A stretch of DNA of 64,000 nt from NCBI GenBank assembly GCA_016219965.1, contig JACRJM010000002.1, positions 48,233 to 112,232 of the forward strand, read 5' to 3'. The translations under genes and the position numbers were made by a program. This stretch comes from Candidatus Schekmanbacteria bacterium. GTDB taxonomy: Bacteria; Schekmanbacteria; GWA2-38-11; J061. Every line of letters starts with the position of its first letter. Positions within the stretch are counted from its first letter, which is position 1. This document shows, one piece after another, positions 3,053 through 48,370 of the stretch. The notes under the pieces are model-generated. The model searched no databases. It was not told the DNA's origin and was given only the letters and a program-made list of their open reading frames with translations.

Positions 3053-3155
3053 AGTTTGAAACTGAAAACACTTCTCCTGTTCAATTAACTATGTTGTGTA
3101 TACTTTTTAAAATCCTTTTCTGTTTCTATGTCAATATTATTATTTATATCTAACT

Positions 3156-3180
3156 GGATTCCCTCTTGCGAGGGAATGAC
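3156..3180 (-). repeat. GTCATT-headed hairpin repeat
   Basis: The reverse complement reads gtcATTCCCTcgcaagAGGGAATcc. The architecture matches 9771-9795, 9848-9874 and 4080-4112: a GTCATT head with self-complementary arms. Confidence 0.6.
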
Positions 3181-3192
3181 AGAACTTTTTTT

Positions 3193-4715: not shown

Positions 4716-5876
4716 CTAATCTTTCAGTATTTCCCTTGCTATCACTATGCGCTGGATCTGGTTGGTGCCGGCGAATATCTGGGTTATCTTGGCATCGCGC
4801 ATCATACGCTCGACCGGATATTCCCTTGTGCAGCCATAACCGCCGAGTATCTGCACCGCATCAACGGTGACCTTCATTGCAGTGTCTGATACAAAGGTCT
4901 TGCACATGGATGAGTAAAGCGTCGCATCCGGTGTGTGGTTCCATGCTTTTATGCAGGCAGTGTAGAGAAGAAGCTTTGACGCCTCTATCTGCATTTTCAT
5001 GTCTGCAAGCATGAACTGTATTGCCTGGAAATCTGCGATGGGACGACCAAACTGGACCCTCTGCTTCGCATAGTCGCGGGCATATTCATATGCACCTTCT
5101 GCCACGCCCATTGCCATTGATGCTGCAACAGGGCGTTCCATGTTAAGGCTCTTCATTGCCGTAACAAAACCTTCTCCTTCAGGTCCCATCATCATGCTCT
5201 TATGGCATCTGTATCCGTCAAGGACTATGTCTCCTGTCACCGAGCCGCGTGCTCCAAGCTTGTCCTCTTTTCTGCCAAGAGAAAAACCGGGCTGGTCTTT
5301 TTCCACTATAAAAGTACTTATCCCTTTTGCTTTCTTTGCTTCATCTGATGTGCGTGCAAAGAAGGAATAAAAATCAGCGACCCCTGCATTGGTTATCCAT
5401 CTCTTCTCACCGGTGATCACATAGTAATCGCCGTCCTTCACAGCGCGCGCCTTTAAGTTTGCAAGGTCTGAGCCTGCCTCTGGTTCGCTCATTGCAACTG
5501 CGCCCAAAATCTCACCTGCCGCTATCCGGGGGAAATATTTTTTCTTCTGCTCGTCGTTAGCCATGTGAAACATTGGGAATATGGCAAGACAGTTGGTGGC
5601 AAGTATCATGGCGCATGACATGTCAGCCTTTGCAATCTCTGTAAGGACCATGCAGACAGTGAGAAGGTCTGCCCCCAGCCCGTCATACTCAATAGGTATA
5701 GGGAGTGCCAGTAGCCCTTCACGTGCGAATACCTCTTTTACGTCCCACGGGTATTTCCCTTCCTTGTCTATCTCTTCTGCCCTCGGGATAATGATATCTT
5801 TGCAAATCTTTTTTACGGTTTGCAGAATAGATTTCTGGTCTTCTGTAAGTTCAAAATCAAGTTTCAGCTCGCTCAT
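4716..5876 (-). CDS. Acyl-CoA dehydrogenase (short/medium-chain type)
   Basis: 386-aa ORF with full-length ACAD character. Examples are AMSEPEAGSD, KRWITNAGVADFY, and the C-terminal QILGGYGCTREYPVERMMRDAKITQIFAGTNQIQR. Confidence 0.9.
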   Translation of the reverse strand: MSELKLDFELTEDQKSILQTVKKICKDIIIPRAEEIDKEGKYPWDVKEVFAREGLLALPIPIEYDGLGADLLTVCMVLTEIAKADMSCAMILATNCLAIFPMFHMANDEQKKKYFPRIAAGEILGAVAMSEPEAGSDLANLKARAVKDGDYYVITGEKRWITNAGVADFYSFFARTSDEAKKAKGISTFIVEKDQPGFSLGRKEDKLGARGSVTGDIVLDGYRCHKSMMMGPEGEGFVTAMKSLNMERPVAASMAMGVAEGAYEYARDYAKQRVQFGRPIADFQAIQFMLADMKMQIEASKLLLYTACIKAWNHTPDATLYSSMCKTFVSDTAMKVTVDAVQILGGYGCTREYPVERMMRDAKITQIFAGTNQIQRIVIAREILKD

Positions 5877-9570: not shown

Positions 9571-9696
9571 GGCAAACGTAAGATTTAGCAGCATACTTTG
9601 TCAGCAGCCAGCTCGCAAATCCTCATGTACAGAAAAGTACACTCCGGTATTGCTCGCCGTCCGCTTTCGCGTCTGCTATCTAAATCTTACGTTTGC
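9571..9696 (+). repeat. Extended-hairpin intergenic repeat of about 125 bp, copy B
   Basis: Perfect 17-bp terminal inverted repeat: GCAAACGTAAGATTTAG at 9572-9588 and CTAAATCTTACGTTTGC at 9680-9696. The central hairpin is TGTAC-agaaaa-GTACA at 9626-9641. The reverse complement aligns with 3193-3315. Confidence 0.75.
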
Positions 9697-9770
9697 AAAA
9701 AAATATATTCAGCTTCCTCGTCTTCCACGCAAAACTTGAATTTGCAAAAAAATGTATTCAGCTTTTCTCT

Positions 9771-9795
9771 GTCATTCCCGTGAAAACGGGAATCC
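9771..9795 (+). repeat. GTCATT-headed hairpin repeat
   Basis: The sequence is gtcATTCCCGtgaaaaCGGGAATcc, with perfect 7-bp arms. Confidence 0.6.
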
Positions 9796-9828
9796 AGTGA
9801 TTTTTTGTTTATTCCTTTTTTTGTATGC

Positions 9829-9910
9829 CATTCTGAGTCCTTCGCTTGTCATTCTGAGCGTAGCGAAGAATCTCATGTTTCGGCTCAGGATAAACTCCGC
9901 GAAGAATCTC
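9829..9910 (+). repeat. Block of short GC-rich repeats (CATTCTGAG x2, GCGAAGAATCTC x2)
   Basis: CATTCTGAG occurs at 9829 and 9850. GCGAAGAATCTC occurs at 9863 and 9899. The block includes the hairpin gtcATTCTgagcgtagcgaAGAATctc at 9848-9874. The track ORFs here are translations of these repeats. Confidence 0.6.
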
Positions 9911-9970
9911 GTTTTTTTCTGTTACTTTTACTCGCTCATCTATAATTTTCAATGGGGGTTTTAAAAAGTA

Positions 9971-10080
9971 GTAGCAATCTCAAACCTATTTATGCCACTT
10001 TATTGTCAGCTTTAATCAAGTTTAAGTTACTATTTTAGACTTTTAATCTTGACTGGCTATCTGCGAGAAATGTATAGAGT
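9971..10080 (+). promoter_or_regulatory. Conserved promoter-bearing leader, copy 1
   Basis: It aligns without gaps to 13790-13899; by my count 87 of the first 100 positions are identical. It contains TTGACT at 10049-10054, an 18-nt spacer, and TATAGA at 10073-10078. Confidence 0.6.
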
Positions 10081-10125
10081 AAGAAAATAGAAGACGTATA
10101 AAAAGAATGTTGGGCATAAAATGCA

Positions 10126-11370
10126 ATGGATCAGAATATGAAAATTTATCCGTTCAACGATGGAGATATATTTGCCACATTTCGTAATATCGTAGACAAG
10201 GTAACACAAGAGATTCAGGCATTAGAAAACGAATATGTGCTTAAAGCGTCACTTGCTGAGCTTGAAAATTACTATATCGAAAAGGTCTTTATTCATCCAC
10301 TTGTCCTACACACAGATCATTATTACATTGAGAATCAATCAGGCACGCAGATAGATATTAGTCATGATTTCCGCAGAGCCGTATTTCCTGGACAGCGTGC
10401 TGTTGTCAGAGGGACCTGTTTAGATATAGCCATTCCATACGATGGGGATTCTATTCTTTGGAGAATTCAAGCTTCCACGTTTAGCTTAAGTGGCTTTCCT
10501 GAGATAGAAATACGTGATGATACGATAGTTCTAACTGTTAGTTTCCCAGATGACATGGCAAACCCTGACCAACTTAAGGTAGATATAGATAGGAGCATTA
10601 GGTCATTAACTGATGCAGTAAAAAATCTAAGTACTGACGTAGAAAAACATAACAATTCAGTGCCGCAAATTATTAAGGCTACCTTACAGCGCAAGAGAAT
10701 GTTAGCCGAATCTACCATTGGTACTGTGTCATCTCTTGGAATTCCAATAAAACGGCGCGACAAGCCATTAACATTCACAGCACCTATGAAACGACGAGAG
10801 TCTCCCATACCTAAGCCAAAAGTTCAAATCGAAGCATATAAACTTGAACCAGTCTTATCAGAAGAAGAGTACCAACATATACTGGAAATTATGCGAAGCA
10901 TGTCTTTAGTAATTGAAAGGAATCCAGCCGTTTTTTCTTCTCTGGATGAGGAGGCTATTCGAACCCACTTTCTCTTACAGTTAAATGGCCACTATAATGG
11001 AAGCGCTACAGGCGAAACCTTTAACGCTTCAGGCAAAACAGACATTCTCATTAGAGTTGAAAATAGAAACATATTTATCGCTGAATGCAAGTTCTGGAGA
11101 GGTTCTTCGGGATTTAATGAAGCTATTAATCAGCTCCTTGGTTATTTATCCTGGCGGGACACTAAGTGCGCATTGCTAATATTTAATAAAACTAAAGATT
11201 CCTCTGGTGTTTGTCAAAAAATGCATGAAACAATGAACTCTCGTCCAGAACATAAAAGAACAATCACATTTAATCCTAATAGTGATGCAAGATACATTTT
11301 CGTAAAAGAAACAGATCCAGGTCGTGAAATTATAATTACAACACAATTGTATGACTTGCCCATTATTTAG
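10126..11370 (+). CDS. Hypothetical protein with C-terminal PD-(D/E)xK-type nuclease motif (cassette ORF 1)
   Basis: 414-aa ORF; an alternative start is ATG 10138. The C-terminal core is GKTDILIRVENRNIFIAECKFWRG (D-x13-E-C-K), followed by QLLGYL. The middle has a basic, Pro-rich linker (KRRDKPLTFTAPMKRRESPIPKPK). I do not recognise the N-terminal half. Confidence 0.55.
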   Translation: MDQNMKIYPFNDGDIFATFRNIVDKVTQEIQALENEYVLKASLAELENYYIEKVFIHPLVLHTDHYYIENQSGTQIDISHDFRRAVFPGQRAVVRGTCLDIAIPYDGDSILWRIQASTFSLSGFPEIEIRDDTIVLTVSFPDDMANPDQLKVDIDRSIRSLTDAVKNLSTDVEKHNNSVPQIIKATLQRKRMLAESTIGTVSSLGIPIKRRDKPLTFTAPMKRRESPIPKPKVQIEAYKLEPVLSEEEYQHILEIMRSMSLVIERNPAVFSSLDEEAIRTHFLLQLNGHYNGSATGETFNASGKTDILIRVENRNIFIAECKFWRGSSGFNEAINQLLGYLSWRDTKCALLIFNKTKDSSGVCQKMHETMNSRPEHKRTITFNPNSDARYIFVKETDPGREIIITTQLYDLPII

Positions 11371-11383
11371 GATAATTGCAGAT

Positions 11384-11475
11384 GGCTAACAAAACGCTAA
11401 AGAGGGACGAGGATTAGCCGTCTTTTTTTCATTTCGGACTCTGTGCACCCGCGCCCTTCATGTTGGGTGTTAGGC
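11384..11475 (+). other. Integron attC-like recombination site 1 (92 bp)
   Basis: The 5' box is GGCTAAC (RYYYAAC-like) and lies 14 nt after the stop codon. The 3' box is GTTAGGC (a perfect GTTRRRY). The two boxes are complementary with one mismatch. The interior is only imperfectly palindromic. Confidence 0.5.
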
Positions 11476-11555
11476 AAGATAGTACATTAGGAAAAAATAA
11501 AGAGATGATTATCGTTAGACAATTGATGACGATGATTCCCAAATATGAGGTGTAA

Positions 11556-13055
11556 ATGAGAGGACGTAAGAATTTAATAGATGAATTAAGCCCCATTCTC
11601 TTGGTGTTGGGGGTTGTGGCAAATTTAGCTGCTATAGTGACGCCACTTTTGCCATCCGCAGCACCATGGATGTCTTTATTGTTCCTTGTGTTCGCAGTTT
11701 TGTTTTGGCTGTTTATTTTGTACAAAAGAATAAATACACCACATAAAGCACGCACTGCACCTGTTCACCTTCACTCTGATTGGGACGCAACTGCACTTGT
11801 GTCCAGTTTATCAAATGCTAAAATTTCGGTGATTAAGCCATCTTTGAAGATTCTTGAGTCACTTTCATTGCATCTTATAATAGCCGACAGGCTCGATACA
11901 GGAGGATGGTCAAAAACGCAGACTTGGCGTTTTGTTCGAGTTAAAAAACCTCTTTCTCCTGTTGGAACTCTAACAGGCACATACTTCGCATTCGAGGCGC
12001 TTAGGCCTTATGGTTATCTGCATTCCTCAGAAGCAAATCATCTTAAAAGTAAACTGTCTGAAATAGTAATGCCAGATGGACGAGTTAAGCGACAAGTTCA
12101 ACTTACGGGCACTGGCATAACAGAAATAGTTTCGGAAAACCTGCGGCACTCTTCTGCGTGGTTTCTTCTTCGTGCATCAACAGGTGATCATCCTACACCC
12201 GCCGATAGAAATTGCGCACTACGAATTGCTGCTGACCTTGCTGGTAGGCTCGAGGTGGCAGAGAGTTTAAAAGGTTTAAAAGAAGATAAAGATATGATGG
12301 GCACTGCATTTGCAACTGTTGCACTCATTGCTGAAGAGCCATGGTTCCAAAACAGAAAACCAGAGCATCAAGAACTGGTTCGATTGTCAATCAAGGCGTT
12401 CTGTAAGTCAAATGAGTTAAGTACTCCGGGTCATCCCTCTTGGGGTGCTGAAGGAGGTGGCTCAGCTGCTGCAGAAACTGCTGCACAGTGGTGTACAGTA
12501 TGGCTCTTATGTTCTATTGCTGACTGGCATGGCTTGGATAGCAGTTTGAAATATGCTTTGTCTGATCAATTACTTGACCTCATTGAGGCAAACATTGCCG
12601 CAGCGACCACTAAGGACATTTTATTGCCATACGCTTTCACTCGTGACGCATCGCGAACGCCAATAGGAGAGTCACTTTTGGCGACGGCAATAGCATGCTA
12701 TGCTTCTATGATACTTTTGGGCATTCAAACCCAGCGAGCAGACACAGAAAGAGTGGAAAGAGCAATTCATGATCTTCTGCATCGAATTATAGACCGAGGT
12801 ATTAAATACTCAACAATTGATTCTTTAGTAGAGCCTTACGAAGGGTACCTGTCATGGGCTGCCTTGCTTTTTGCACTGAGACCAATTCTTCATCCTGTTG
12901 CTTTAAAAGCGACAAATTTTATTTCTGAAATATTGTCAGACACTGCAATTAATTTAGGATCTAATGACTTAATGTTAGCCCATGAAAAAATTAACTTCTT
13001 GTATAACGAAGCTGGAATTACTCTGCACCCTAATGGTCTAATGCAGGATTTGTAG
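11556..13055 (+). CDS. Membrane-anchored protein with alpha/alpha-toroid (prenyltransferase/terpene-cyclase-like) repeats (cassette ORF 2)
   Basis: 499-aa ORF with a GAGGTG RBS. Two N-terminal TM helices are predicted (ILLVLGVVANLAAIV..., MSLLFLVFAVLFWLFILY). Repeated GGW...T.Y.A.EAL-type segments follow (DTGGWSKTQTW...GTYFAFEAL, HSSAWFLL, GTAFATVALIA, EGGGSAAAETAAQW). Confidence 0.45.
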   Translation: MRGRKNLIDELSPILLVLGVVANLAAIVTPLLPSAAPWMSLLFLVFAVLFWLFILYKRINTPHKARTAPVHLHSDWDATALVSSLSNAKISVIKPSLKILESLSLHLIIADRLDTGGWSKTQTWRFVRVKKPLSPVGTLTGTYFAFEALRPYGYLHSSEANHLKSKLSEIVMPDGRVKRQVQLTGTGITEIVSENLRHSSAWFLLRASTGDHPTPADRNCALRIAADLAGRLEVAESLKGLKEDKDMMGTAFATVALIAEEPWFQNRKPEHQELVRLSIKAFCKSNELSTPGHPSWGAEGGGSAAAETAAQWCTVWLLCSIADWHGLDSSLKYALSDQLLDLIEANIAAATTKDILLPYAFTRDASRTPIGESLLATAIACYASMILLGIQTQRADTERVERAIHDLLHRIIDRGIKYSTIDSLVEPYEGYLSWAALLFALRPILHPVALKATNFISEILSDTAINLGSNDLMLAHEKINFLYNEAGITLHPNGLMQDL

Positions 13056-13111
13056 AGAAAACGACATTTATGAGTCTATAGGTATCAAATGAATAATGAA
13101 CGAATATAAAT

Positions 13112-13176
13112 TCCTAACAACCGCATCAAGGCCGACGCCGAGAAATGCGGCGGCGCCACTGGTGAGGCCGTTAGCC
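13112..13176 (+). other. Integron attC-like recombination site 2 (65 bp)
   Basis: The sequence is TCCTAACAACCGCATCAAGGCCGACGCCGAGAAATGCGGCGGCGCCACTGGTGAGGCCGTTAGCC. The arms are complementary with bulges. As I remember it, the layout closely resembles the classical 60-bp aadA-type attC. Confidence 0.75.
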
Positions 13177-13191
13177 CCGAAAGGATTTAAC

Positions 13192-13710
13192 ATGAGACGA
13201 GAAGAAAGAACAATCCCATCAGAAGAGATCCTACTGAAAGCAATGGAGCTTGCATGGAAAGACCATCATCACGCGCGAGACCAAACATGGAAGACAGTAC
13301 AGATGGTTGCGGTATTAGGCGCGGGTCTATTGACTATAGATCTCCAATACAAGAGTTTGCTGGCAACCGCACTAGCAGCCCTTCTCGTGGTCCTTGCTTC
13401 GGCCGTTGGTGTTGGGATCACCTGGAATCATAGGAAGTTAGAAAGGAGAAAATTTATACATTTGATGAATTGTGAAGAACTTCTCGGACTACACCGCGAC
13501 GATATCATTCCTCTTGCCTGCAATGATGACTCGATGAAGAACAAAAGTGATCTTGTAAAAGACAGCGCAGTCAGCGTTCCGAAGAAATACAAGTTCATCG
13601 ACGTTATCAATCCTTTCAAGCAAAATACTTCACTTTTCATCCTTCGAATTCACCTTGCTATCATGGTGTTTGCATTACTCATCATATTCCTAAGGTGGCG
13701 TATCACATGA
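13192..13710 (+). CDS. Small membrane protein, three predicted TM helices (cassette ORF 3)
   Basis: The track ORF starts at 13096 but reads through attC-2. The ATG at 13192 lies 16 nt after the GTTAGCC box. Predicted TM segments are VQMVAVLGAGLLTI, LATALAALLVVLASAVGVGI and LFILRIHLAIMVFALLIIFL. Confidence 0.55.
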   Translation: MRREERTIPSEEILLKAMELAWKDHHHARDQTWKTVQMVAVLGAGLLTIDLQYKSLLATALAALLVVLASAVGVGITWNHRKLERRKFIHLMNCEELLGLHRDDIIPLACNDDSMKNKSDLVKDSAVSVPKKYKFIDVINPFKQNTSLFILRIHLAIMVFALLIIFLRWRIT

Positions 13711-13789
13711 GTAAAAATAAGGAGAGCGCCTGTTTTTTATGGAATCTATAAAGGCGGAATTTTAAATCTTATTCTTCTGGTCACTGCCG

Positions 13790-13900
13790 TAACAATCTGA
13801 TACCCATTTATGCCAATTTATTGTCAACTTTGATCAAGTTTAAGTTACTATTTTAAACTTTCCTTCTTGACTGACTATCTGCGAGAGAGATATATAAGTA
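13790..13900 (+). promoter_or_regulatory. Conserved promoter-bearing leader, copy 2
   Basis: Paralogue of 9971-10080. It contains TTGACT at 13868-13873, an 18-nt spacer, and TATATA at 13892-13897. The spacing and offset are the same as in copy 1. Confidence 0.6.
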
Positions 13901-13991
13901 TATGAAGTACAATATATATAAAAAAGAATATTACGTTTACCAATTTTATCCAAATTAGTATCTAAGTTCAAAGCTTACAAGATAGAAGATT

Positions 13992-15671
13992 TTGAATAAT
14001 TCTCCAACAAATATGTGGATTGTAATTGATGAAATGCCCCCCGGCTCAATGAATTTTGAGAAAATTGGTGGTATAAAGATTTTTCGCCCTCGAGCATCTA
14101 ATGAGGTAGCACTTTGTGTTGAGGCTGAAAATAATCTTCGATCTGAATTTGAGGTTGGAAAATATACTGATAGGGAAACTATAAACAGGATTCTAAAACA
14201 TCAGTTTAGTTTTTTTATTAATTTACTTAACCAGTTATTGCCCACCTTAGCATCTTTAGATTTTTTGAGATTTCTTCTGACCGAATATGATAAGACCTCA
14301 GAAATTGATCGCTTGTATAAAAACAATCAGCTTAATGATGATAAGGAAAAATGGGCTGATTTAGGCCCAACTATACGGCGAGCAATAAAATATCTCGCAG
14401 AGCGAGTAATTCTGTTTCGACCAGTAGAACTGCCTGATGTGTCAGATGAAATAATAATAGAAGCTACAGAAAAAATATGGATTTGTGCAGAAGAATTGGT
14501 GAAGCACTACATTTTAAGCGACCAGACGTTTATGATCTTTCCTGATGATACAATTTTTGAAGTCAATCCAGTAGGTAATCACAACTATTGGACGCTTAAG
14601 ATAAATAATAATTATGCCACAGAAGTGCGAGAACGTATAAGAATTGATACAATGAATCGGGATAAATTTATACATTCCCCGTCATTTGACCTGCAATCCA
14701 GTGAGCATGAAAAAATATTGGGGGATGCATTCAAAAATACTATGAGTTTATCATATCTGGAAGTTTTAGGGACTTTACGAACTTTCATTGATTTAGCTCA
14801 ACCACCTCAAGAGGGTTTTCCTATTCCGTTTGTACACCGAGAACAAACTCTCAACTTGCTAGCAAGCTACTTAAACTTCCCGCAACCAGCTATTGAGCAG
14901 GTTATTGCCGGTTTCTCCATTTCCCAATCCAATTTAGAAACCGAAGGTCGTGAGATATGGAAACCGAAACAGGAGTATAGGGCTTTCAGAAGGGGTATTT
15001 TTGAAGCCCCTCATTCTACAGGAACTCATCTAATTTTTTCCAAAGCAATGGCAGAAGAGAGCGCACTTCAGCTTGTAGGGGGAATAGTATTTAAAGACAT
15101 TCCACCAGAATGGCGCAGTGATGAAGTAAATGTGGCTCTGGAAACTTTGTCAAACGAAGCTGGAAAGTGGTTTGAGCAAGTAGTTTTAAAAAATTTTGAA
15201 ATGGTTGGCGTTTTTGGCATAAAATCTATGAAGAATGGGATTGGACAGCAAAATAAGAGAATTACAATTCCTCCAGATGTTGGCGAGATTGATTATCTTG
15301 GATATTCTCCATGTGAAAATCTATTGGTTTTGTGTGAGTGTAAAATGGTCAGAGCAGGCTTTGAACCAAAATATTTCCGCGATGAGATATATGAATTTGT
15401 GGGCAGCAACACATCTTATTTTAAGAAGTTTCAAAGGAAAATTGATTGGGTACGTCAGAACGTAAATGATATATGTGATGCTCTATCATCTGTTCGGGTA
15501 CATGATGTACCCATTACACCGACCCGTATTGCAACAGTAATTGTCACACTCTATCCGTCTATCGTTTCTTGTTTTACTACTGATTTTCCATGCGTCTCTA
15601 TCACCGAAATCATGATGGGATACAAACAGAATGGGAATTGGCCCTATAAATTGGGAGTACTTATTTGCTGA
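13992..15671 (+). CDS. Hypothetical protein with C-terminal PD-(D/E)xK-type nuclease motif (cassette ORF 4)
   Basis: 559-aa ORF starting at TTG; an alternative start is ATG 14013. The C-terminal core is WFEQVV...GEIDYLGYSPCENLLVLCECKMV (E...D-x14-E-C-K). I do not recognise the N-terminal 430 aa or so. Confidence 0.55.
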   Translation: MNNSPTNMWIVIDEMPPGSMNFEKIGGIKIFRPRASNEVALCVEAENNLRSEFEVGKYTDRETINRILKHQFSFFINLLNQLLPTLASLDFLRFLLTEYDKTSEIDRLYKNNQLNDDKEKWADLGPTIRRAIKYLAERVILFRPVELPDVSDEIIIEATEKIWICAEELVKHYILSDQTFMIFPDDTIFEVNPVGNHNYWTLKINNNYATEVRERIRIDTMNRDKFIHSPSFDLQSSEHEKILGDAFKNTMSLSYLEVLGTLRTFIDLAQPPQEGFPIPFVHREQTLNLLASYLNFPQPAIEQVIAGFSISQSNLETEGREIWKPKQEYRAFRRGIFEAPHSTGTHLIFSKAMAEESALQLVGGIVFKDIPPEWRSDEVNVALETLSNEAGKWFEQVVLKNFEMVGVFGIKSMKNGIGQQNKRITIPPDVGEIDYLGYSPCENLLVLCECKMVRAGFEPKYFRDEIYEFVGSNTSYFKKFQRKIDWVRQNVNDICDALSSVRVHDVPITPTRIATVIVTLYPSIVSCFTTDFPCVSITEIMMGYKQNGNWPYKLGVLIC

Positions 15672-15683
15672 GATTGAAGGTAA

Positions 15684-15793
15684 ACCTAACAAGCGTTTGC
15701 AGCCACTATGTTTTTCAGCTTTGTTTTGTCAGCCAAGTTGTCGTAAACTGAAACTGCTTATCTTGCCCCGCAAAGGTTCAAAAGGGGTTAGGT
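15684..15793 (+). other. Integron attC-like recombination site 3 (110 bp)
   Basis: The 5' box ACCTAAC is a perfect RYYYAAC and lies 13 nt after the stop. The 3' box GTTAGGT is a perfect GTTRRRY. The two boxes are perfectly complementary. There is an inner TTTGC/GCAAA pairing and a partly palindromic centre. Confidence 0.6.
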
Positions 15794-16037
15794 CTTGAAA
15801 GATAAGTTTTGTTATGTAATCTGAAGACTGTAAAGCTTGGACATACAATGAAACAAATTGCTTCATATTTACAAGTCCATTCTACAGATGCAAGCAAGTT
15901 AATAATACGTTAGAAAAAAAGTGATAATTCAAGAAATGGCCCCTCTAATTTCCCTGCTTTTTGACTTACTATTCAAACGAACTTGACACGGGATTTTCTG
16001 ATGGATATTCTTTGGATATACGCAGGAGGTAGCGTTA

Positions 16038-16286
16038 ATGGTTACGAAAATTCAAAAATGGGGAAACAGCCAGGGGCTGCGTATTGCCAGACAGGTTCTT
16101 GAGGACGCGCACATTTCGGTGGGCGACGAGGTTGACGTGACAATAAGGAAAGGCATGCTTATCATTGCTCCGATAAAATGCATTCGTGGTCTCAGGAGTC
16201 TGGAAGAACTGGTCTCACGCATACCCAAGAGCTACAAGCCCAAAGAGACTGATTGGGGCAAACCAGTGGGTAAAGAGGTCTGGTAG
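16038..16286 (+). CDS. mazE: AbrB/MazE/SpoVT-family antitoxin
   Basis: 82-aa ORF with the signature N-terminus VTKIQKWGNSQGLRIARQVLE. The RBS is AGGAGG. Confidence 0.85.
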   Translation: MVTKIQKWGNSQGLRIARQVLEDAHISVGDEVDVTIRKGMLIIAPIKCIRGLRSLEELVSRIPKSYKPKETDWGKPVGKEVW

Positions 16287-16394
16287 GTGAAAGAAGATAT
16301 TCCTGAAAAGGGCGATTTTATTGCAGTCACATTCAATCCCCAGTCCGGGCATGAACAGAAAGGCCGCCGCGCGCGTGGGACCTGCGCATTATAA
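16287..16394 (+). pseudogene. mazF: Truncated MazF/PemK-family toxin (N-terminal 28 aa or so only)
   Basis: A GTG lies directly after the mazE stop. The translation is VKEDIPEKGDFIAVTFNPQSGHEQKGRR, which matches the MazF N-terminus (GD.....F.P..GhEq.G.R). It then diverges (ARGTCAL) and stops at 16392-16394. Confidence 0.7.
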
Positions 16395-16454
16395 AAGATA
16401 CACCCCCGAAGTTAATCCTGCGACGAAAAAAGAGATTTTCACCATCTAAATTAA

Positions 16455-16487
16455 CATAGTATGTCGAAAAAATGTCGACATACTATG
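16455..16487. promoter_or_regulatory. Perfect 12-bp inverted repeat upstream of abiEi (candidate operator)
   Basis: CATAGTATGTCG (16455-16466) and CGACATACTATG (16476-16487) are separated by 9 nt. The site ends about 30 nt upstream of the AbiEi ORF. Confidence 0.55.
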
Positions 16488-16514
16488 CTCAAATGTGCTA
16501 TTTTATAGTATGGG

Positions 16515-17177
16515 ATGTTTCAAGGAGACGGTAGAGTGACAATAAACATACTTCGTAAAAAGGTAAAGGGTGAGGAGTTTGATTATCAGATCCTCCTTGA
16601 CTGTCTAAAGGGAGTGAAATGCCCGCGCGACAAGATTACAAACATGCTCAAGCGTGGTATGATAATTCGTATTAAGAAGGGCATCTATGTCTTTGGCAAG
16701 GATTATGCCCGAAGTCCTTTCTCAAGGGAAGTGCTTGCTAATATGATTTATGGACCTTCCTATATATCGCTTGAATATGCCCTTCATTATTATGGGTTTA
16801 TTCCTGAGCGCGTCGAGGCATTGACATCAAGTACATGCGGACGCGGGCGGAAATTTTCAACGCCTGCCGGATTGTTTATTTATTGTTCGATACCGCGAAA
16901 GGCTTACAGCAAAGGGATAGACAGAGTAGAAATCTCGGGTGGAAGCTCCTTTCTGATAGCTGTACCGGAGAAGGCGCTTGCAGACAAGGTATTCCTTGAC
17001 AGGGGGACAGGCATAAAGACACAAAGAGAAATGGAAAGATATCTGAGCGAGAACCTTCGTATTGACTTTAGTCAACTGGAACGTCTTAACCATAATTTGA
17101 TTTGTGAGCTTGCATCTTGCTATGGCTCAAGGAAGATAAGGCTGTTAAGCGAGCTCATCCATAAGTCAGCAAAATAA
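16515..17177 (+). CDS. abiEi: AbiEi-family type IV TA antitoxin / transcriptional regulator
   Basis: 220-aa ORF; the GTG at 16536 after AAGGAG is an alternative start. It has the IRIKKGIYVF motif typical of AbiEi winged-helix N-domains. It sits directly upstream of abiEii. Confidence 0.7.
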   Translation: MFQGDGRVTINILRKKVKGEEFDYQILLDCLKGVKCPRDKITNMLKRGMIIRIKKGIYVFGKDYARSPFSREVLANMIYGPSYISLEYALHYYGFIPERVEALTSSTCGRGRKFSTPAGLFIYCSIPRKAYSKGIDRVEISGGSSFLIAVPEKALADKVFLDRGTGIKTQREMERYLSENLRIDFSQLERLNHNLICELASCYGSRKIRLLSELIHKSAK

Positions 17178-17192
17178 AAAAATGAATGATAT

Positions 17193-18059
17193 ATGAATGA
17201 AGTAATTTCAAAAATGATTTCTGCCTATGAGTGCAGGACGCTCGACGACTATGTAAAGGCACTTCGCGAGATTATGCAGGAAGTTGCCCTCCTCGGACTT
17301 TGGAGAAGCAAATTTTTCGAGCATTCTGCTTTTTACGGCGGAACAGCGCTGCGGCTTCTTTACGGATTGGACCGCTATTCGGAGGATCTTGATTTCTCGC
17401 TTCTTAAAGCTAACCCGGATTTTAACATTTCGCGGTATCTTAATGTCCTGAGAAATGAGCTGGTGTCATATGGCTTTGATGTAAGCCTTGAGAAAAAGAA
17501 GAAAGGAGAAGGCACTGCAATCCAATCTGCTTTTCTAAAGGCTGATACATTGAAGCAGCTTATCGTAGTTGAAGCTCAGAAAAATATAGTAGCAGAACTG
17601 CCGCGAGGAAGAATAATAAAAATTAAACTCGAAATCGATACAAATCCACCGGCAGGATTTGAAACTGAAACAAAGTTCCTGCTTCAGCCTATCCCTTTTT
17701 CAGTCAAAGTCTTTTCATTGCCTGATCTTTTTGCGGGAAAGATGCACGCACTTCTCTGCAGAAACTGGAAAAGCAGGGTTAAGGGACGTGACTGGTATGA
17801 CTTTGTCTGGTATGTTTCAAATCATCCGAATTTAAGGCTTTCACATCTTGAAAAAAGAATGCAGCAGAGTGGACATATAAGGGAAGAAGAACATCTTGAA
17901 GAAGATGAATTCCGCTCAATGTTGAGGGAAAAAATAAAAGCGGTTGACGTAGTACAAATTAAAAAAGAGGTAACTCCATTCCTAAAAAATCCGGATATGA
18001 TTGCAATATGGTCTGAAAAGTTTTTCCTGAGCCTGATAGAGAAAATTAAAATTGTATAG
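17193..18059 (+). CDS. abiEii: AbiEii/AbiGii-family nucleotidyltransferase toxin (DUF1814)
   Basis: 288-aa ORF with the signature FYGGTALRLLYGLDRYSEDLDFS, and K.HALL.R...RDWYD downstream. Confidence 0.85.
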   Translation: MNEVISKMISAYECRTLDDYVKALREIMQEVALLGLWRSKFFEHSAFYGGTALRLLYGLDRYSEDLDFSLLKANPDFNISRYLNVLRNELVSYGFDVSLEKKKKGEGTAIQSAFLKADTLKQLIVVEAQKNIVAELPRGRIIKIKLEIDTNPPAGFETETKFLLQPIPFSVKVFSLPDLFAGKMHALLCRNWKSRVKGRDWYDFVWYVSNHPNLRLSHLEKRMQQSGHIREEEHLEEDEFRSMLREKIKAVDVVQIKKEVTPFLKNPDMIAIWSEKFFLSLIEKIKIV

Positions 18060-18095: not shown

Positions 18096-18308
18096 TTATG
18101 CGACTATAAGTTCAACAGGGAAAGGCTGGTCAATGCCGACGGTTTTGCTGACATAAAGTTTTTCAATCCCTATTACTTTGCCATTCTTATCTTTTTTAAG
18201 AATAACACCTTCCCCTACCTCTTCGCATAGAACCTCATCCTCGGGATTCCCAAACCAGATATCCATTGTGTCCGATTTCTTGTGATAATAAACAATTACC
18301 TTGTCCAT
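18096..18308 (-). CDS. DUF2283-domain protein (putative antitoxin-like partner)
   Basis: 70-aa ORF. The segment DTMDIWFGNPEDE...GVILKKDKNGKVIGIEKL is typical of DUF2283. It overlaps the upstream small ORF by 13 nt. Confidence 0.7.
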   Translation of the reverse strand: MDKVIVYYHKKSDTMDIWFGNPEDEVLCEEVGEGVILKKDKNGKVIGIEKLYVSKTVGIDQPFPVELIVA

Positions 18309-18613
18309 ATCACATCTCCTTCCTTTACTTTCTCTGTTGGATAAGCTGTAATTATAAAACCTTTCATTCCCGAATTCTTAACTACTACACAATATAGTCT
18401 ATCAATCAGTTTGTAGTAAAGGAAAACATTCCTGTCTGTCCTGCTCTGTTTGATTTCATCAGGAAATTTCAAAGTATTTTTTACAGCTTCTTTCTTCCCC
18501 TTCATAATCGGGTGCTTTATTGTGGTGATATAAAGCCAATAGTTTTTTGTTGTTCTTACCTCAATATTAAGAGGTGTCATTATTGAAAAAAATATTTTTT
18601 CCTCAAAATACAT
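18296..18613 (-). CDS. Small hypothetical protein, putative toxin-like partner of DUF2283
   Basis: 105-aa ORF; the real start may be the internal Met (MTPLNIEV...). The C-terminus (GFIITAYPTEKVKEGDVIW) resembles small toxin families that pair with DUF2283. The family name is not certain. Confidence 0.4.
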   Translation of the reverse strand: MYFEEKIFFSIMTPLNIEVRTTKNYWLYITTIKHPIMKGKKEAVKNTLKFPDEIKQSRTDRNVFLYYKLIDRLYCVVVKNSGMKGFIITAYPTEKVKEGDVIWTR

Positions 18614-34847: not shown

Positions 34848-35984
34848 ATGTATCAATTAACAGAAGAACAGAAGATGATAAAAACTCTGGCAAGGAAGAT
34901 TGCCGATGAAAAAATACTGCCCATAAGAGCAAAGCTCGATGAGTCGGAGGAATTTCCGCACGATGTATTGAAGGCTCTTACAGAGGCTGGTCTTACCGGG
35001 CTTTATATCGACGAGGAATTCGGCGGCGCGGGGATGGGAACTTTCGAGATGTCTCTTGTCATGGAGGAATTATCAAGAGCCTGTGCAGGTATAGCCATAT
35101 CATACGGAGCCTGTGGTCTTGGCGCCTATCCTTTGATACTTTTTGGAAGCAAGGAACAGAACAAAAAATACCTTTCCAGGATTGCATCTGGTGAATGTTA
35201 TGCAGCCTTCGCTCTTACAGAGGCAGAGGCAGGAAGCGATGCCGGAAACGTAAAGACCCGCGCAGAGAAGAAAGGCAACAAATATATCCTCAACGGGACC
35301 AAGCAGTGGATAACCAATGGAAGCGTTGCAGAGATATATACGGTCATTGCCTCGACTAACCGCGCAAGGGGAGCGCGAGGGCTTTCAGCTTTTGTAGTTG
35401 AAAAGGGGACTCCGGGTTTCACATTCGGCAACAAGGCTGAAAAGATGGGAATAAGGGCATCGGTTACATCAGAGCTTATTTTCGAGGACTGCGAAATACC
35501 TGCTGAAAACCTCATATATAAAGAAGGCGCGGGGTTTGCAGTTACTATGAAAACCCTCGACAGAGCGCGTCCCGGAGTTGCAGCACAGGCTTTAGGGATT
35601 GCACAGGGTGCATTTGATGAGGCGCTCCAGTATTCAAAGATAAGGGAGCAGTTCGGAAAACCCATATCAGCGAACCAGACCATACAGAACATGCTTGCCG
35701 ACATGGCTACGGAGATAGAAGCGGCACGCTCTCTTCTTTATAATGTTGCAAAATACGTTGATTCAGGAGCTGCCGATATTTCCAAGGAATCTGCAATGTG
35801 CAAGCTTTACGCATCTGACGTTGCAATGAAGGTGACTGTTGATGCTGTCCAGATACTTGGCGGCTACGGCTACATGAGGGATTATCCTGTTGAGAAGATG
35901 ATGCGTGATGCCAAGATTACGCAGATATACGAAGGCACAAACCAGATCCAGCGGCTCGTAATTGCAAACAAACTGCTGAAGTAA
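34848..35984 (+). CDS. Acyl-CoA dehydrogenase (butyryl-CoA dehydrogenase-like)
   Basis: 378-aa ORF with ALTEAEAGSD, KQWITNGSVAEIY and QILGGYGYMRDYPVEKMMRDAKITQIYEGTNQIQR. It is a paralogue of 4716-5876. Confidence 0.9.
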   Translation: MYQLTEEQKMIKTLARKIADEKILPIRAKLDESEEFPHDVLKALTEAGLTGLYIDEEFGGAGMGTFEMSLVMEELSRACAGIAISYGACGLGAYPLILFGSKEQNKKYLSRIASGECYAAFALTEAEAGSDAGNVKTRAEKKGNKYILNGTKQWITNGSVAEIYTVIASTNRARGARGLSAFVVEKGTPGFTFGNKAEKMGIRASVTSELIFEDCEIPAENLIYKEGAGFAVTMKTLDRARPGVAAQALGIAQGAFDEALQYSKIREQFGKPISANQTIQNMLADMATEIEAARSLLYNVAKYVDSGAADISKESAMCKLYASDVAMKVTVDAVQILGGYGYMRDYPVEKMMRDAKITQIYEGTNQIQRLVIANKLLK

Positions 35985-43908: not shown

Positions 43909-45738
43909 ATGGAAACGCTCAATATTGCAAGGCCGGATTACAACCCAAAAGTATCAAAAATCCCGGAGTTAATAGGCAGGCACCCAGGAACGATTGCACC
44001 TGTTATCAAATGCAGGCCGCAGGCTGTACAGATCGTAACACCTGTAAGCGGCTCCCGCGTTTCAGGAAAAATTGAGATTAAAGTGAGAATCAGGGATGGT
44101 TATCCTGAGGTCTCCGACAACCTTAAGAAAATAGCCGTCACAGTGAACGGGGAGAAATTTGAGTTCAATCAATCACCCTGTTCTGTTTTTTATGACACGG
44201 CACCGCTCGGTTTCCGCATTATGAAAATAAAAGCAGAGGCCATAGGGAAGGGTGAAGAAGGGGAAAACGATGTCCTTTCATCATACTACATAAATGTTGC
44301 CGCAGAGAACGGCGCATTTGACAGGACAAAGCCCCTTATCCTTTTTACAGGCGTCATAGAGCCAAAGCTCACCAACATAGACAAGCCGTGGACTTCTCAA
44401 ATGTACAAGGACTGTTATCTTTTTTCTAAGAACATAATGGACCATCTCATGCATTATGGGTTTGTTCCATCATTTTTAAAAGAGGTCGATCAGTTGAGCG
44501 TGCTTATCGATCCCACTCAGCCTAAAAAAGGTTTTGAGGAATACACGCCTGTTAAACTTATTGATGTGCTTGGAAGGGAAAAGGGACCAGGACAGGAAAA
44601 GACATACACGGAGATGATTCCAGACTGTGTCTGGATGGAGCCTACCAAGACAAGGCTAGGAACTGTGCTTCGCGGCTATCATACTCCGAACTCCTTTACA
44701 CCGAATGATATGGCGGATATTTACGAAGTCTTTGCCGCAAGGGTGTGCACATACTACAATCAATTTGAAAAGTTTTCCGGAATGAGGGGATGGGACCAGA
44801 CCCAGATGCTTTTTAACGACGTAATGGAGAGGCTCGAAAAGGCGGGTTATAATTATCCCTGGGAACCATATTCACTTCTCATTGGTGAAAAGCCGCATAC
44901 CCTGAAGGAAAAGATAAAAAAACATGTTCTTCAAAACAACATCTCAAGCGTTCTTCTTTCAGACTATCTCACAGACCTTTCAGATTTTGAAGATGCCAAG
45001 TGCCTCTGGGAGGAAGCGCAGGAGGCTGTTGATCTTGTGGCGCAGGAAACTGGCAGGAAGCTTCAGCTCGCAGTCCTCTGGTCAACCGGGGGAAGACTGA
45101 TGGGAATCCATCCGGGTTTTGCGGAGGCGGCGTTAAAAGTCACGCAAAATGAGATAGAGTCATCTGGCATCCCTGAAAATGCAAAAATTGGTATGATCCT
45201 TGGCGAGCATGGCTATCCTCCGGGCAATGGCGACGAGGACGTGATCGGGATCAACATGGAGCGGGTTAGACAGAACATGAGAAGCCATTATGACAGGAAG
45301 CTTAAAGGGCTGAGAAAAGGATATACAGAGTACCATCTTGGCATGAATGAATTTAACAACAATCCGGAATCATACCAGATTGGCTCAATGGAATGGATGG
45401 TTGACTATCTCCACAGGGGCTTTGACTGTATCATCTTCCAGCCCTACTACTTTACGAACGAGACCATAGACCTCTTTGAACATCTGCGCCACTGGGCATT
45501 TGAAGTGGATGGCGTTGATGGCCATGAATTCCACGGCGGCCATGAGGTGCTTGACAATTACAGGAGCGATTTCAATTTCAGAGGGACAAGGATAATAATC
45601 ACCGGCTCTATCGTCGGCAGGTATGAAAAAGACGGCGCAAAATCGCCGCTCCTAAAGGAAGGCTATAATCTTTTCACAGGAGCGATTGCAGAGCAGATCG
45701 GGGAAAGGATAGAAGAGCTCGGTGTTCCTTCAATATGA
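43909..45738 (+). CDS. Hypothetical protein (Ig-like N-terminal segment; weakly chelatase-like C-terminal region)
   Basis: 609-aa ORF with a GAGGGGGG RBS. An Ig-like segment is VQIVTPVSGSRVSGKIEIKVRIRDG. The C-terminal GEHGYPPG ... FQPYYFTNETIDLFEHL weakly recalls class II chelatase/ferrochelatase motifs. Confidence 0.3.
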   Translation: METLNIARPDYNPKVSKIPELIGRHPGTIAPVIKCRPQAVQIVTPVSGSRVSGKIEIKVRIRDGYPEVSDNLKKIAVTVNGEKFEFNQSPCSVFYDTAPLGFRIMKIKAEAIGKGEEGENDVLSSYYINVAAENGAFDRTKPLILFTGVIEPKLTNIDKPWTSQMYKDCYLFSKNIMDHLMHYGFVPSFLKEVDQLSVLIDPTQPKKGFEEYTPVKLIDVLGREKGPGQEKTYTEMIPDCVWMEPTKTRLGTVLRGYHTPNSFTPNDMADIYEVFAARVCTYYNQFEKFSGMRGWDQTQMLFNDVMERLEKAGYNYPWEPYSLLIGEKPHTLKEKIKKHVLQNNISSVLLSDYLTDLSDFEDAKCLWEEAQEAVDLVAQETGRKLQLAVLWSTGGRLMGIHPGFAEAALKVTQNEIESSGIPENAKIGMILGEHGYPPGNGDEDVIGINMERVRQNMRSHYDRKLKGLRKGYTEYHLGMNEFNNNPESYQIGSMEWMVDYLHRGFDCIIFQPYYFTNETIDLFEHLRHWAFEVDGVDGHEFHGGHEVLDNYRSDFNFRGTRIIITGSIVGRYEKDGAKSPLLKEGYNLFTGAIAEQIGERIEELGVPSI

Positions 45739-47161: not shown

Positions 47162-47320
47162 CTACTTTACCTGATATACTTTTGCCTTTCCCTTGTTATT
47201 CTGAATATTTATTCTTGGGTATCCTTGCCATGGGGTTTTGTAAATTCGATGACTGCTCCCATGTTGACGAGGGGAAGTTGTTAGAAAATCATTTTGTGCG
47301 GGGAAAATAAAATCACCAGT
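47162..47320 (-). pseudogene. hicA: HicA-family toxin remnant (5' end interrupted by the IS30 element; apparent premature TAG)
   Basis: My own minus-strand translation gives ...RQHGSSHRIYKTPWQGYPRINIQNNKGKAKVYQVK*. The GSxH and KGKAKxYQVK motifs are HicA-like. There is no start codon between the IS end and the motif. The frame past the TAG continues as VLLALERLEV. Confidence 0.6.
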
Positions 47321-48370
47321 TCAATAATGAAGTGCAACACTTGGGAAAGCAGAAAGGAAGATGCTATCCTAAGTTGCTATGTCAAAAGAATACATTCATT
47401 TAAGTATATTTGAAAGAGATAAAATTACTATTATGCTTTCAGAGAAGAAAACACTTGGAGAGATAGGAAAAGAGCTTGGGCGAAGTAAAAGCACTATCTC
47501 GCGGGAGTTAAAGCGCAATTCTTCTCCAGAGTATAAGCTCTACTTGTCACACAGAGCTCATACTCGTTCTGTTTTGAGACGAGAGGCGGCAAGTTCACGC
47601 GCGAGGCTTAAAGACAAGCACATCAAGTTATATGTGCGCGACAAGCTCAAGGAAGGCTGGTCGCCTGAGCAGATATCAGGAAGAATAGGCATTGATTTTC
47701 CATGCCTCTCAATAAGCCATGAGGCGATTTATCAGTATGTTTACAGCTCTGAAACAGAGGGACGTCAGGATTTGATTCAGTGCCTGAGACGGTCACATCG
47801 TAAGCGCAAAAGCAAGGGGATCTCGAGGAAAGTGCGTAAAACAAAGATACCCAACAGGATATCTATAGAGCAAAGACCGGCAGCAGTGGAAGCACGTCTT
47901 GAGGCTGGACACTGGGAATCAGACAGCCTGGTATCCAGAAAAAGCCATGTTGCCCTTAACTCGCTGGTAGAACGAAAGAGCCGGTTGCTGAGGCTCACGA
48001 AACTGAACCGAAAAACAGCCGCATCTACATACGAGGTTATTGTTGAAAGGTTAAAAGACCTTCCTATTGAGGCGAGAAGGACGCTAACCATGGATAACGG
48101 CACTGAAAATGCAGAGCATCAGGAGATTACTGCTGCCATTGGAATAAAATGTTATTTTGCTCATCCATACGCCTCATGGGAGCGCGGAACTAATGAAAAT
48201 ATCAATGGTCTCATAAGGTGGTACTTACCAAAAGGTACTGACTTTAATACCATAACCAACGAACAAATAGCTCGCATCGAATCATTGATTAACAATAGGC
48301 CAAAAAAGTGCCTTGACTATAAAACACCATTAGAAGTAGCTTCTCAATTTGTTGCACTTCGAGGTTGAAT
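47320..48370 (+). mobile_element. IS30-family insertion sequence (about 1.05 kb)
   Basis: Imperfect terminal inverted repeats are TTCAATAATGAAGTGCAACACTTG (left) and CAATTTGTTGCACTTCGAGGTTGAA (right), sharing the core GAAGTGCAACA. The transposase stop lies inside the right IR. The exact ends are uncertain by a few bp. Confidence 0.75.
47379..48368 (+). CDS. IS30-family transposase
   Basis: 329-aa ORF. The N-terminal HTH is LGEIGKELGRSKSTISRELKRN. It also has GHWESD and LTMDNGTE..H...........YFAHPYASWERGTNENINGLIR, the IS30 DDE signature. Confidence 0.9.
   Translation: MSKEYIHLSIFERDKITIMLSEKKTLGEIGKELGRSKSTISRELKRNSSPEYKLYLSHRAHTRSVLRREAASSRARLKDKHIKLYVRDKLKEGWSPEQISGRIGIDFPCLSISHEAIYQYVYSSETEGRQDLIQCLRRSHRKRKSKGISRKVRKTKIPNRISIEQRPAAVEARLEAGHWESDSLVSRKSHVALNSLVERKSRLLRLTKLNRKTAASTYEVIVERLKDLPIEARRTLTMDNGTENAEHQEITAAIGIKCYFAHPYASWERGTNENINGLIRWYLPKGTDFNTITNEQIARIESLINNRPKKCLDYKTPLEVASQFVALRG

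Follow-up and report, generated by a model that had tools for sequence, protein, structure and literature searches.

The locus and its repeated leader

The DNA analysed here, referred to throughout as the window, is a 64-kb stretch from the genome of an uncultured environmental bacterium, Candidatus Schekmanbacteria, and all coordinates are positions within it (Table 1). Between 9970 and 16400 it carries an integron-type array of gene cassettes, in which two open reading frames (ORFs) with nuclease motifs, ORF1 and ORF4, are each preceded by one copy of a repeat, named here leader copy A and leader copy B. The leader lies in the slot that recombination sites occupy in integrons and is, on our best reading, an attI-like site that would bring a promoter to the cassettes behind it.

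The two copies form by far the longest repeat of the window, and the repeat has sharp ends. A preliminary description of the sequence had reported a gapless match with 87 identities in the first 100 positions, which our realignment reproduced; the second copy, placed there at 13790-13899, was one base off and begins at 13789, giving a true offset of 3818. Without gaps, 91 of the 106 positions are identical between 9971-10076 and 13789-13894, and with four small indels the match extends over 9971-10111 and 13789-13932 (119/145 identical). Identity is unevenly distributed along this alignment, falling from 88% in columns 1-98 to 62% in columns 99-130 and returning to 87% over the 15 columns at the end (Fisher p = 0.003). 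It therefore peaks at the promoter-like site with the block upstream of it and again in the final 15 nucleotides (nt) at the crossover point, with a minimum between the two. The earlier statement that conservation covers about 80 bp upstream of the -35 hexamer and fades after the -10 hexamer is right as to the upstream block and the subsequent drop, and overlooked the second conserved block at the right end. Each of the two best-conserved blocks occurs exactly twice in the window, against zero occurrences expected from shuffled sequences.

Searches with exact 21-23-mers of the leader recovered no further copy from viral contigs or GTDB genome contigs, exact words gave no true copy in JGI metagenome contigs, and BLASTN against plasmids and phages returned only noise. 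A single 21-mer match in the JGI metagenomes was rejected as a chance hit, since it lies inside a helicase-like ORF and the identity is confined to the 21-mer. A structured RNA or riboswitch was rejected on the grounds of a scan of the whole window that detected no Rfam family at the gathering score and by RNA folds of both strands of both copies that are no better than those of shuffled sequences (z -1.15 to +0.04). Both copies also keep a seven-codon frame, MPLYCQL plus a stop codon at 9993-10016 and MPIYCQL plus a stop codon at 13811-13834, with three substitutions between them (one changing L to I, one synonymous and one exchanging stop for stop). No ribosome-binding site precedes this frame, which is located upstream of the -35 hexamer, and its retention is probably a coincidence.

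An integron-type array with decayed attC sites

The closest homologues of the window genes are encoded by contigs from other metagenomes, which are labelled below with L and a number. ORF4 has orthologues in L004-L007 (80% at the amino acid (aa) level) and L008 (77%), ORF1 has orthologues at 91% (L013) and 89%, and ORF3 has one at 85%. In these contigs, L004-L007 and L008, canonical attC sites of 120-129 nt lie on either side of the ORF4 orthologue, with R'' (G/A)(C/G)CTAAC, R' GTTAGG(T/C), bulged stems formed by the R and L boxes, and folding free energies (dG) of -15 to -25 kcal/mol. In L013, a 66-nt attC hairpin (dG -17.8, z -5.3) follows the ORF1 orthologue. Folded as whole sites, the orthologous attC sites of L004, L008 and L013 reach z-scores of -1.8 to -5.3.

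The cassettes of the window end where these orthologous cassettes end, and they form a series of co-oriented units bounded by R'' and R' cores; all ORFs from 10126 to 18059 lie on the forward strand. The 5' end of cassette c2, TTAGGC, comes directly after the G of the R' of attC1. Both attC1 and attC3 keep the R box and have lost most of the inner stem, and their whole-site z-scores are about +1. The decay of attC1 is clear when it is set beside the orthologous site of L013, with 92 nt versus 66 and a fold z-score of +1.06 versus -5.3, and it has taken place in an array that is devoid of an integrase. Downstream of attC3, the MazE-like frame (MazE_antitoxin in Pfam, E = 6e-6) is followed by a MazF/PemK-like frame that stops after about 35 codons, and this unit looks like a degraded toxin-antitoxin cassette.

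The attC sites of the orthologues, the sites retained in the window, the lack of a recombinase there and the housekeeping genes on the flanks together identify a small fossil array in the chromosome, of the kind known as CALIN (a cluster of attC sites without an integrase). The region 9970-16400 is thus a short, integrase-less, CALIN-like and partly decayed array of phage-defence cassettes lying between core genes.

The leader ends at the crossover point

Both copies of the leader end in crossover-type cores (Table 1), and the comparison with orthologous cassettes places these ends precisely (an arrow marks the crossover). Homology to the ORF1 orthologues starts at the crossover of copy A, a point on which the alignment with L003 agrees. 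In L013, the ORF1 cassette starts as ...TTG↓TTAGCCATAAAATGC, the site G↓TTAGCC being complementary to the R'' GGCTAAC of the same cassette; the equivalent in the window is ...AAAAAGAATG↓TTGGGCATAAAATGC. The ORF4 cassette starts in L004 and L008 as ...GCG↓TTAGGTTTACC, directly after a bona fide attC, and in the window as ...AAAAAAGAATA↓TTACGTTTACC, the point where copy B ends. The window junctions ...GAATG↓TTGGGC and ...GAATA↓TTACGT thereby stand against ...GCG↓TTAGGT in L004 and L008 and ...TTG↓TTAGCC in L013. For both copies, the homology between leaders ends where the homology between cassette and orthologue begins, at the canonical crossover. Because it ends exactly at this point, the leader is not part of the cassettes and occupies the place that a recombination site has in an integron.

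The preliminary description had seen the leader as a conserved element at the 5' edge of cassettes, and for two independently acquired cassettes this is borne out. Its further idea, that the cassettes carry a private, portable promoter, does not survive the comparison. The leader is absent from all the closest orthologues of ORF1, ORF4 and ORF3 that were examined, its 3' part is not significantly similar to the 24-45 nt that precede the ORF1 orthologues (p = 0.2-0.7), and the ORF3 orthologue (L014) is followed by a site that has an R''-like core with neither an attC fold nor a leader. Several properties do recall such a module, understood as an operator or upstream (UP) region for an unknown regulator: the copies have the same orientation and the same promoter offset, their T-tracts are phased, and identity is higher in the 98 nt comprising the -35 hexamer and the 78 nt before it (88%) than in the following 32 nt. 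Yet it is missing upstream of every close orthologue examined and lies beyond the cassette boundaries, no regulator gene adjoins it, and the viral, plasmid, phage, genome and metagenome collections searched by exact words or BLAST yielded no copy, and we consider this explanation very unlikely. The proposed coupling of the two nucleases in expression stands to the extent that a predicted promoter of the same type precedes both, and falls insofar as it was attributed to private cassette cargo.

The junctions also bear on the idea of a small dispersed non-autonomous repeat, similar to miniature inverted-repeat transposable elements (MITEs) or Correia elements, that would carry an outward promoter and have come by chance to lie at two junctions, or of a small RNA gene. 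Correia elements resemble the leader in size and in their outward promoter, and an imperfect terminal inverted repeat, GTARCAATCT...AGAATRTTRC, can be drawn in it, pairing at 9/11 positions in copy B and 6/9 in copy A. However, only two copies exist in the 64 kb, both at crossover points, with no target-site duplication and no association with a transposase, and neither an Rfam family nor a fold above shuffled sequences was detected on either strand. This makes a dispersed repeat or an RNA gene highly improbable.

A possible attI-like rather than an attC site

To distinguish the two kinds of recombination site, the first and the last 26 nt of each site were paired as an arm duplex. Five bona fide attC sites from L004, L008 and L013 form duplexes of -13 to -18 kcal/mol (z -3.4 to -5.5), and the decayed attC1 and attC3 of the window still reach -9.5 and -10.1 kcal/mol (z -1.3 and -2.0), respectively. 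The corresponding values are -3.5 kcal/mol (z +1.5) for leader copy A and -5.4 kcal/mol (z -1.4) for copy B, in which no attC-like pairing of the arms extends beyond 5 bp, and whole-site DNA folds of the leader are no better than those of shuffled sequences (z +0.6 to +1.3). Since both the arm duplexes and the whole-site folds lack a hairpin, the leader fails the structural definition of an attC.

It could nevertheless be argued that the two copies are unusual, host-specific attC sites of the cassettes to their left, with copy B belonging to c2 and copy A to a lost or gene-less cassette, and with promoter hexamers that are incidental or only secondarily useful. In sedentary chromosomal integrons, attC sites are more than 80% alike, as the two leaders are. 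The left end, (GCC)GTAACAAT, resembles the canonical R'' plus spacer GCCTAACAATTCG of L004, the right end falls at G↓TT, the ends of copy B pair as CGTAA/TTACG, and the 141-144 nt of the leader fall at the upper end of attC lengths (PMC12901181). Against this stand the absence of an L''/L' stem and of any hairpin, the weakness of the arms by comparison with genuine sites (-3.5 and -5.4 versus -13 to -18 kcal/mol), and an R box that in copy A pairs at only 2/7 positions. Moreover, attC1 and attC3 are ordinary sites of the heterogeneous type, and no cassette lies upstream of copy A. On balance, we regard host-type attC sites as unlikely.

The evidence instead favours an attI-type reading of the leader. 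In integrons, the cassette promoter (Pc) is found beside attI, either inside the integrase gene or adjacent to it, and in the leader a rightward promoter-like site precedes the crossover point by about 30 nt. Copy A opens the array and borders on non-cassette DNA near core genes. The leader ends in an A-rich run before G↓TT, and A-rich ends likewise precede the crossover in attI1 (AAACAAAG↓TT) and attI2 (AATAAAATG↓TT) (PMC12901181). Judged from the sequence, cassettes appear to have been joined to it at the GTTGGGC and ATTACGT cores with no hairpin symmetry, in the manner of attI. The attI-type reading is preferred because of this combination of a position at the head of the array, an A-rich end before G↓TT and a rightward promoter-like site near the crossover. 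We give an even chance to the full proposition that the leader is a double-stranded, attI-like site carrying a promoter of the Pc type, of which copy B is a duplicate of the delta-attI type.

A number of observations weigh against this proposition. Foremost, the defining neighbour of an attI is absent: a tblastn search with IntI1 found no integron integrase in the window, the same probe finding the Xer-like recombinase of L019 at 3e-15, and Pfam scans of 28 window ORFs found neither a Phage_integrase domain nor a tyrosine recombinase. A tblastn search with the L019 recombinase itself gave one weak match (44773-45039, E = 0.004), in a 609-aa ORF that has no Pfam domain. The window accordingly contains no complete integron with intI beside attI; about 400 nt of non-coding DNA similar to repetitive extragenic palindromic (REP) elements and a UbiD-family gene lie upstream of copy A in its stead. 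The array itself has only two attC-like sites, both decayed. The crossover base of copy B is A and not G, and the match of the sequence at its left end to an R'' core, discussed below, needs a 1-nt insertion (chance roughly 0.03). Neither of the leader -10 hexamers was called by the promoter scan, which demands a T at position 6. Finally, the count of two copies is that of the 64-kb window within a contig of roughly 300 kb, the collections searched gave no relatives of the leader, and an identity of 82-86% between the copies would call for either an old duplication or a copy from a related integron.

The lack of an integrase nearby would also fit a leader that is a resident promoter region, one that served as a secondary site (attG, consensus GWT) and was later duplicated by homologous recombination or received a second insertion in a paralogous copy. 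Integrases do insert cassettes at double-stranded genomic GWT sites, and expression follows when these are near a resident promoter (10.1101/2022.09.11.507474); the G↓TT and A↓TT junctions of the window fit such events. However, cassettes that were independently inserted into two copies at one and the same nucleotide point to a preferred site rather than a random GWT, both copies lie 3.8 kb apart in one array, and it would go unexplained why copy B is fused to an R'' remnant. An attG origin thus appears decidedly unlikely.

Promoter-like signals in the leader

Direct reading of the sequence confirmed that TTGACT, an 18-nt spacer and TATAGA or TATATA stand at equal offset in both copies. The -35 hexamer matches at 5/6 positions and the -10 hexamer at 4/6, without T at position 6. 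Upstream of this site, TTT(T)A tracts recur once per 8-12 nt (mean 10.4), and their periodicity of 10-11 nt ranks among the top 1% of sequence windows (shuffle p = 0.02); phased T-tracts are typical of bent, activating or protein-bound upstream DNA. By these signals, an outward, sigma-70-like promoter comparable to Pc is plausible in the leader, and the block pattern of conservation fits continued selection for expression after the loss of the integrase.

A leftward promoter-like site is also present on the reverse strand of both copies (10059 to 10032 and 13877 to 13850; TAGCCA or TAGTCA, 16 nt, TAAAAT). It is weaker than the rightward one and overlaps the rightward -35 hexamer. Its location would correspond to that of the integrase promoter (Pint), facing the place where the integrase gene would lie in a complete integron, a correspondence that is only an analogy.

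Possible duplication of the leader and history of the array

Cassette c2 does not end in an attC of its own, and copy B stands in its place. As c2 begins with TTAGGC at 11470, its R'' is expected to read GCCTAAC, and the sequence fused to the left end of copy B, GCCGTAAC, is that core with one extra base; the left edge of copy A is without an R'' core. If copy A is an attI, c2 therefore has the build of a delta-attI cassette, in which an attC has been replaced at its R'' by a partial attI.

We infer both the history that may have led to this arrangement and its consequence for expression. IntI would have aberrantly recombined the R'' of c2 with a core-like site inside attI (GTAGC/GTAAC) and so released a circle consisting of c2 and 141 nt of attI. 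This circle would have re-entered at a resident attI, upstream of c3 with ORF4, and c1 with ORF1 would have been inserted last, at the head of the array. The outcome would be the order leader, c1, c2, leader, c3, which is the order observed. Each copy would then fire rightwards, copy A driving the PDC-S54 gene of c1 and probably ORF2-ORF3, and copy B driving ORF4 together with the MazE remnant, so that the internal copy would restart the expression gradient of the array.

Table 1. Features of the cassette array and its surroundings (positions in the 64-kb window)
Feature	Position	Strand	Remarks
Leader copy A	9971..10111	+	141 nt; repeat detection and gapped alignment; head of the cassette array
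Promoter-like site, copy A	10049..10078	+	TTGACT (10049-10054), 18 nt, TATAGA (10073-10078); read from sequence
Crossover-type core GTTGGGC	10109..10115	+	Leader copy A ends at G↓TT; ORF1 cassette starts at 10110
Cassette c1	10110..11469	+	ORF1 and its own attC
ORF1	10126..11370	+	PDC-S54 match
attC1	11384..11475	+	R'' GGCTAAC ... R' GTTAGGC; one R''/R' mismatch; decayed
Cassette c2	11470..13930	+	ORF2 (11556-13055) and ORF3 (13096-13710); own attC replaced by leader copy B
GCCGTAAC	13786..13793	+	Putative R'' remnant of the original attC of c2, fused to the left end of copy B
Leader copy B	13789..13932	+	144 nt; repeat detection and gapped alignment; mid-array
Promoter-like site, copy B	13867..13896	+	TTGACT (13867-13872), 18 nt, TATATA (13891-13896); read from sequence
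Crossover-type core ATTACGT	13930..13936	+	Leader copy B ends; ORF4 cassette starts at 13931
Cassette c3	13931..15787	+	ORF4 and its own attC
ORF4	13992..15671	+	TTG start, 559 aa
attC3	15684..15793	+	R'' ACCTAAC ... R' GTTAGGT; R box perfect, 0 mismatches; inner stem decayed
Cassette-like unit	15788..16400	+	MazE-like antitoxin (16038-16286), then truncated MazF-like frame
Palindrome ATAGTATGTCGAAAAAATGTCGACATACTATG	~16458..16490		Just upstream of the AbiEi/AbiEii pair
AbiEi/AbiEii pair	16515..18059	+	
DUF2283 and DUF4258-like pair	18096..18613	-	
IS30-like transposase gene	47379..48368		HTH_38 and rve domains; within 31-nt imperfect inverted repeats (47320-48369)

The two nucleases and the other cassette genes

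The two ORFs that the preliminary description had assigned to 10126-11370 and 13992-15671 both exist. They are indeed without mutual similarity outside the motif (best BLASTP E = 2.6), and the D-x13/14-E-C-K core named there is present in both and conserved among the homologues of each. ORF1 matches PDC-S54 of PADLOC, which is a candidate defence family only, at E = 7e-134; residues 6-412 align to profile positions 4-407 of 410, a full-length match, and the number of homologues exceeds 5,500. Its motif, D306-x13-E320-C-K322, is invariant in 24 homologues. On account of the alignment of orthologues and of the profile match that begins at residue 6, the true start is likely the ATG at 10138. The full-length structure model of ORF1 has a low predicted TM-score (pTM 0.44) and no significant Foldseek match.

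In ORF4, the motif takes the form D434-x14-E449-C-K451, with K451 invariant and D434 and E449 conserved in at least 90% of 43 homologues. Its AlphaFold model is of high quality (predicted local distance difference test score (pLDDT) 90.3, pTM 0.86) and matches the nuclease Upx (9wuf) in Foldseek at E = 4e-12 over 568 alignment columns, with TM-scores of 0.52 relative to the query (TMq) and 0.27 relative to the target (TMt); a profile search relates ORF4 to the same Upx chain at E = 0.008. On the strength of the predicted structure, ORF4 is a Upx-like PD-(D/E)xK nuclease and not an orthologue of Upx, and the model suggests that it may be a streamlined, single-nuclease version of it. About 118 homologues of ORF4 are known, some of them in integron cassettes (L004, L008). 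The homologue of L019 adjoins the Xer-like recombinase and an IS21 helper gene, with no attC; this contig was tried as a source of a real attI for reference and set aside, the recombinase being Xer-like and not IntI.

ORF2 is a protein of 499 aa with N-terminal transmembrane helices, and ORF3, with a true length of about 172 aa, is a membrane protein with weak 8xMP/DsbB-like matches. The pair recurs in L017 (3915-5939) and L018 (567-2591), in non-integron contexts near a TIR-domain protein and a DUF2283 gene, and may be an uncharacterised two-gene membrane defence module.

Flanks and other repeats of the window

On its left, the array is flanked by an ADP-forming acyl-CoA synthetase pair and the UbiD-family gene, and on its right by a MacB-type ABC transporter. 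The UbiD locus has one close relative for comparison, in L010 (78%), and the contig ends 123 nt after the gene. REP-like palindromic units (GTCATTCCCGTGAAAACGGGAATCCAG; GTCATTCTGAGCGTAGCGAAGAATCTC) at 9660-9920, among them a 49-nt unit in tandem at 9660-9757, take up the stretch from the UbiD-family gene to copy A, which is the expected place of an integrase gene; one such unit is found again, in inverted orientation, at 3153-3183. The island ends on its right with further defence or toxin-antitoxin modules that have no recognisable attC, namely the AbiEi/AbiEii pair, with the long palindrome just upstream of it, and the DUF2283 and DUF4258-like pair. Elsewhere in the window, an IS30-like transposase gene lies within imperfect inverted repeats (Table 1), and two acyl-CoA dehydrogenase paralogues on opposite strands (4716-5876 and 34848-35984) share a 185-nt stretch of 77% identity.

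Comparison with known systems

The arrangement described here comes closest to the delta-attI-type cassettes, which, together with attI-ORF-attI units, among them complete attI1-ORF-attI1 units, occur in mobile integrons; the published account (Gonzales Machuca et al. 2026, PMC12901181) includes one that retains 244 nt of attI2, and proposes that they arise when the R'' of an attC aberrantly recombines with a box inside attI, through which the attC is replaced by part of attI. In those cassettes, as here, a copy of the attI region takes the place of the downstream attC, two attI-derived sites flank the cassettes in direct orientation, and the retained piece has an A-rich end before G↓TTRRRY. 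The proposed crossover of attI box and R'' also fits the fusion of GCCGTAAC with the leader. The two situations differ in that the array of the window is chromosomal, belongs to an uncultured environmental bacterium, carries defence rather than resistance cassettes and has no integrase to prove that copy A is an attI. They differ further in that the 141-nt piece holds a complete promoter-like site and that its copies are 82-86% alike. With the platform formed by attI and Pc, the leader has in common its place at the head of a co-oriented array, the joining at G↓TT, the absence of hairpin symmetry and a predicted promoter that precedes the crossover by some tens of nt and is directed into the array. 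Unlike that platform it has no adjacent intI, and no similarity to known attI sites was found, none being expected.

Considered as a whole, the array conforms to the finding that integron cassettes and CALINs commonly carry defence systems (10.1101/2024.07.02.601686). It shares with those CALINs the type of content (the PDC-S54 candidate, the Upx-like nuclease, and toxin-antitoxin and Abi modules), the R''/R'-bounded cassettes and the lack of an integrase nearby, and ORF4 suits the reported theme of streamlined variants of known defence systems. In contrast to them, it has only two recognisable attC sites, both decayed, and two of its junctions are held by a promoter-bearing repeat that is not an attC. 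Vibrio superintegrons contain gene-less cassettes that carry promoters (Blanco et al. 2024, PMC11014356), and these, like the leader, are non-coding units of an array giving sense-strand promoter activity, in the case of the leader a predicted one, to the cassettes downstream. Those units are complete cassettes with their own attC, whereas the right half of the 141-nt leader contains neither an internal AAC core nor a hairpin, and the left edges of the leader, G↓TAGC and G↓TAAC, are not G↓TT.

Among known defence proteins, the closest relative of ORF4 is Upx, a single-protein defence system with two PD-(D/E)xK nucleases (PDB 9wuf; PMC13099982). The two have the C-terminal PD-(D/E)xK core in common, and ORF4, with 559 aa as against 1212 in the PDB chain of Upx or 1272 in its sequence record, is about half its size. 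The architecture of Upx, with N-terminal, middle and C-terminal domains (NTD-MD-CTD) over some 1200 aa, is accordingly not that of ORF4, for which the structural match is half-length. The locus thus supplies two compact candidate defence genes, for PDC-S54 and for a half-size Upx-like nuclease, in an easily cloned cassette format.

Integron cassettes are thought to depend on a single promoter at the head of the array, with distal cassettes being silent. Against this background, it is conceivable, albeit doubtful, that the leader represents an undescribed attI-type site that brings a promoter of its own and can move along with a cassette. If this were true, environmental chromosomal arrays could copy their expression site inward and keep several defence cassettes on at once, a natural reset of the integron expression gradient that may persist under selection after the integrase has been lost. 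A duplicated, promoter-bearing attI-like site would show how one array expresses two defence nucleases, and it would extend delta-attI cassettes from clinical integrons of classes 1 and 2, the only setting described so far, to environmental defence arrays. Defence cassettes and CALINs, promoters supplied by non-coding units of arrays, and delta-attI cassettes are each already known. What is new is their combination: a long attI-like piece with a promoter-like site, duplicated within an environmental chromosomal defence array in such a way that two nuclease cassettes are both in first position.

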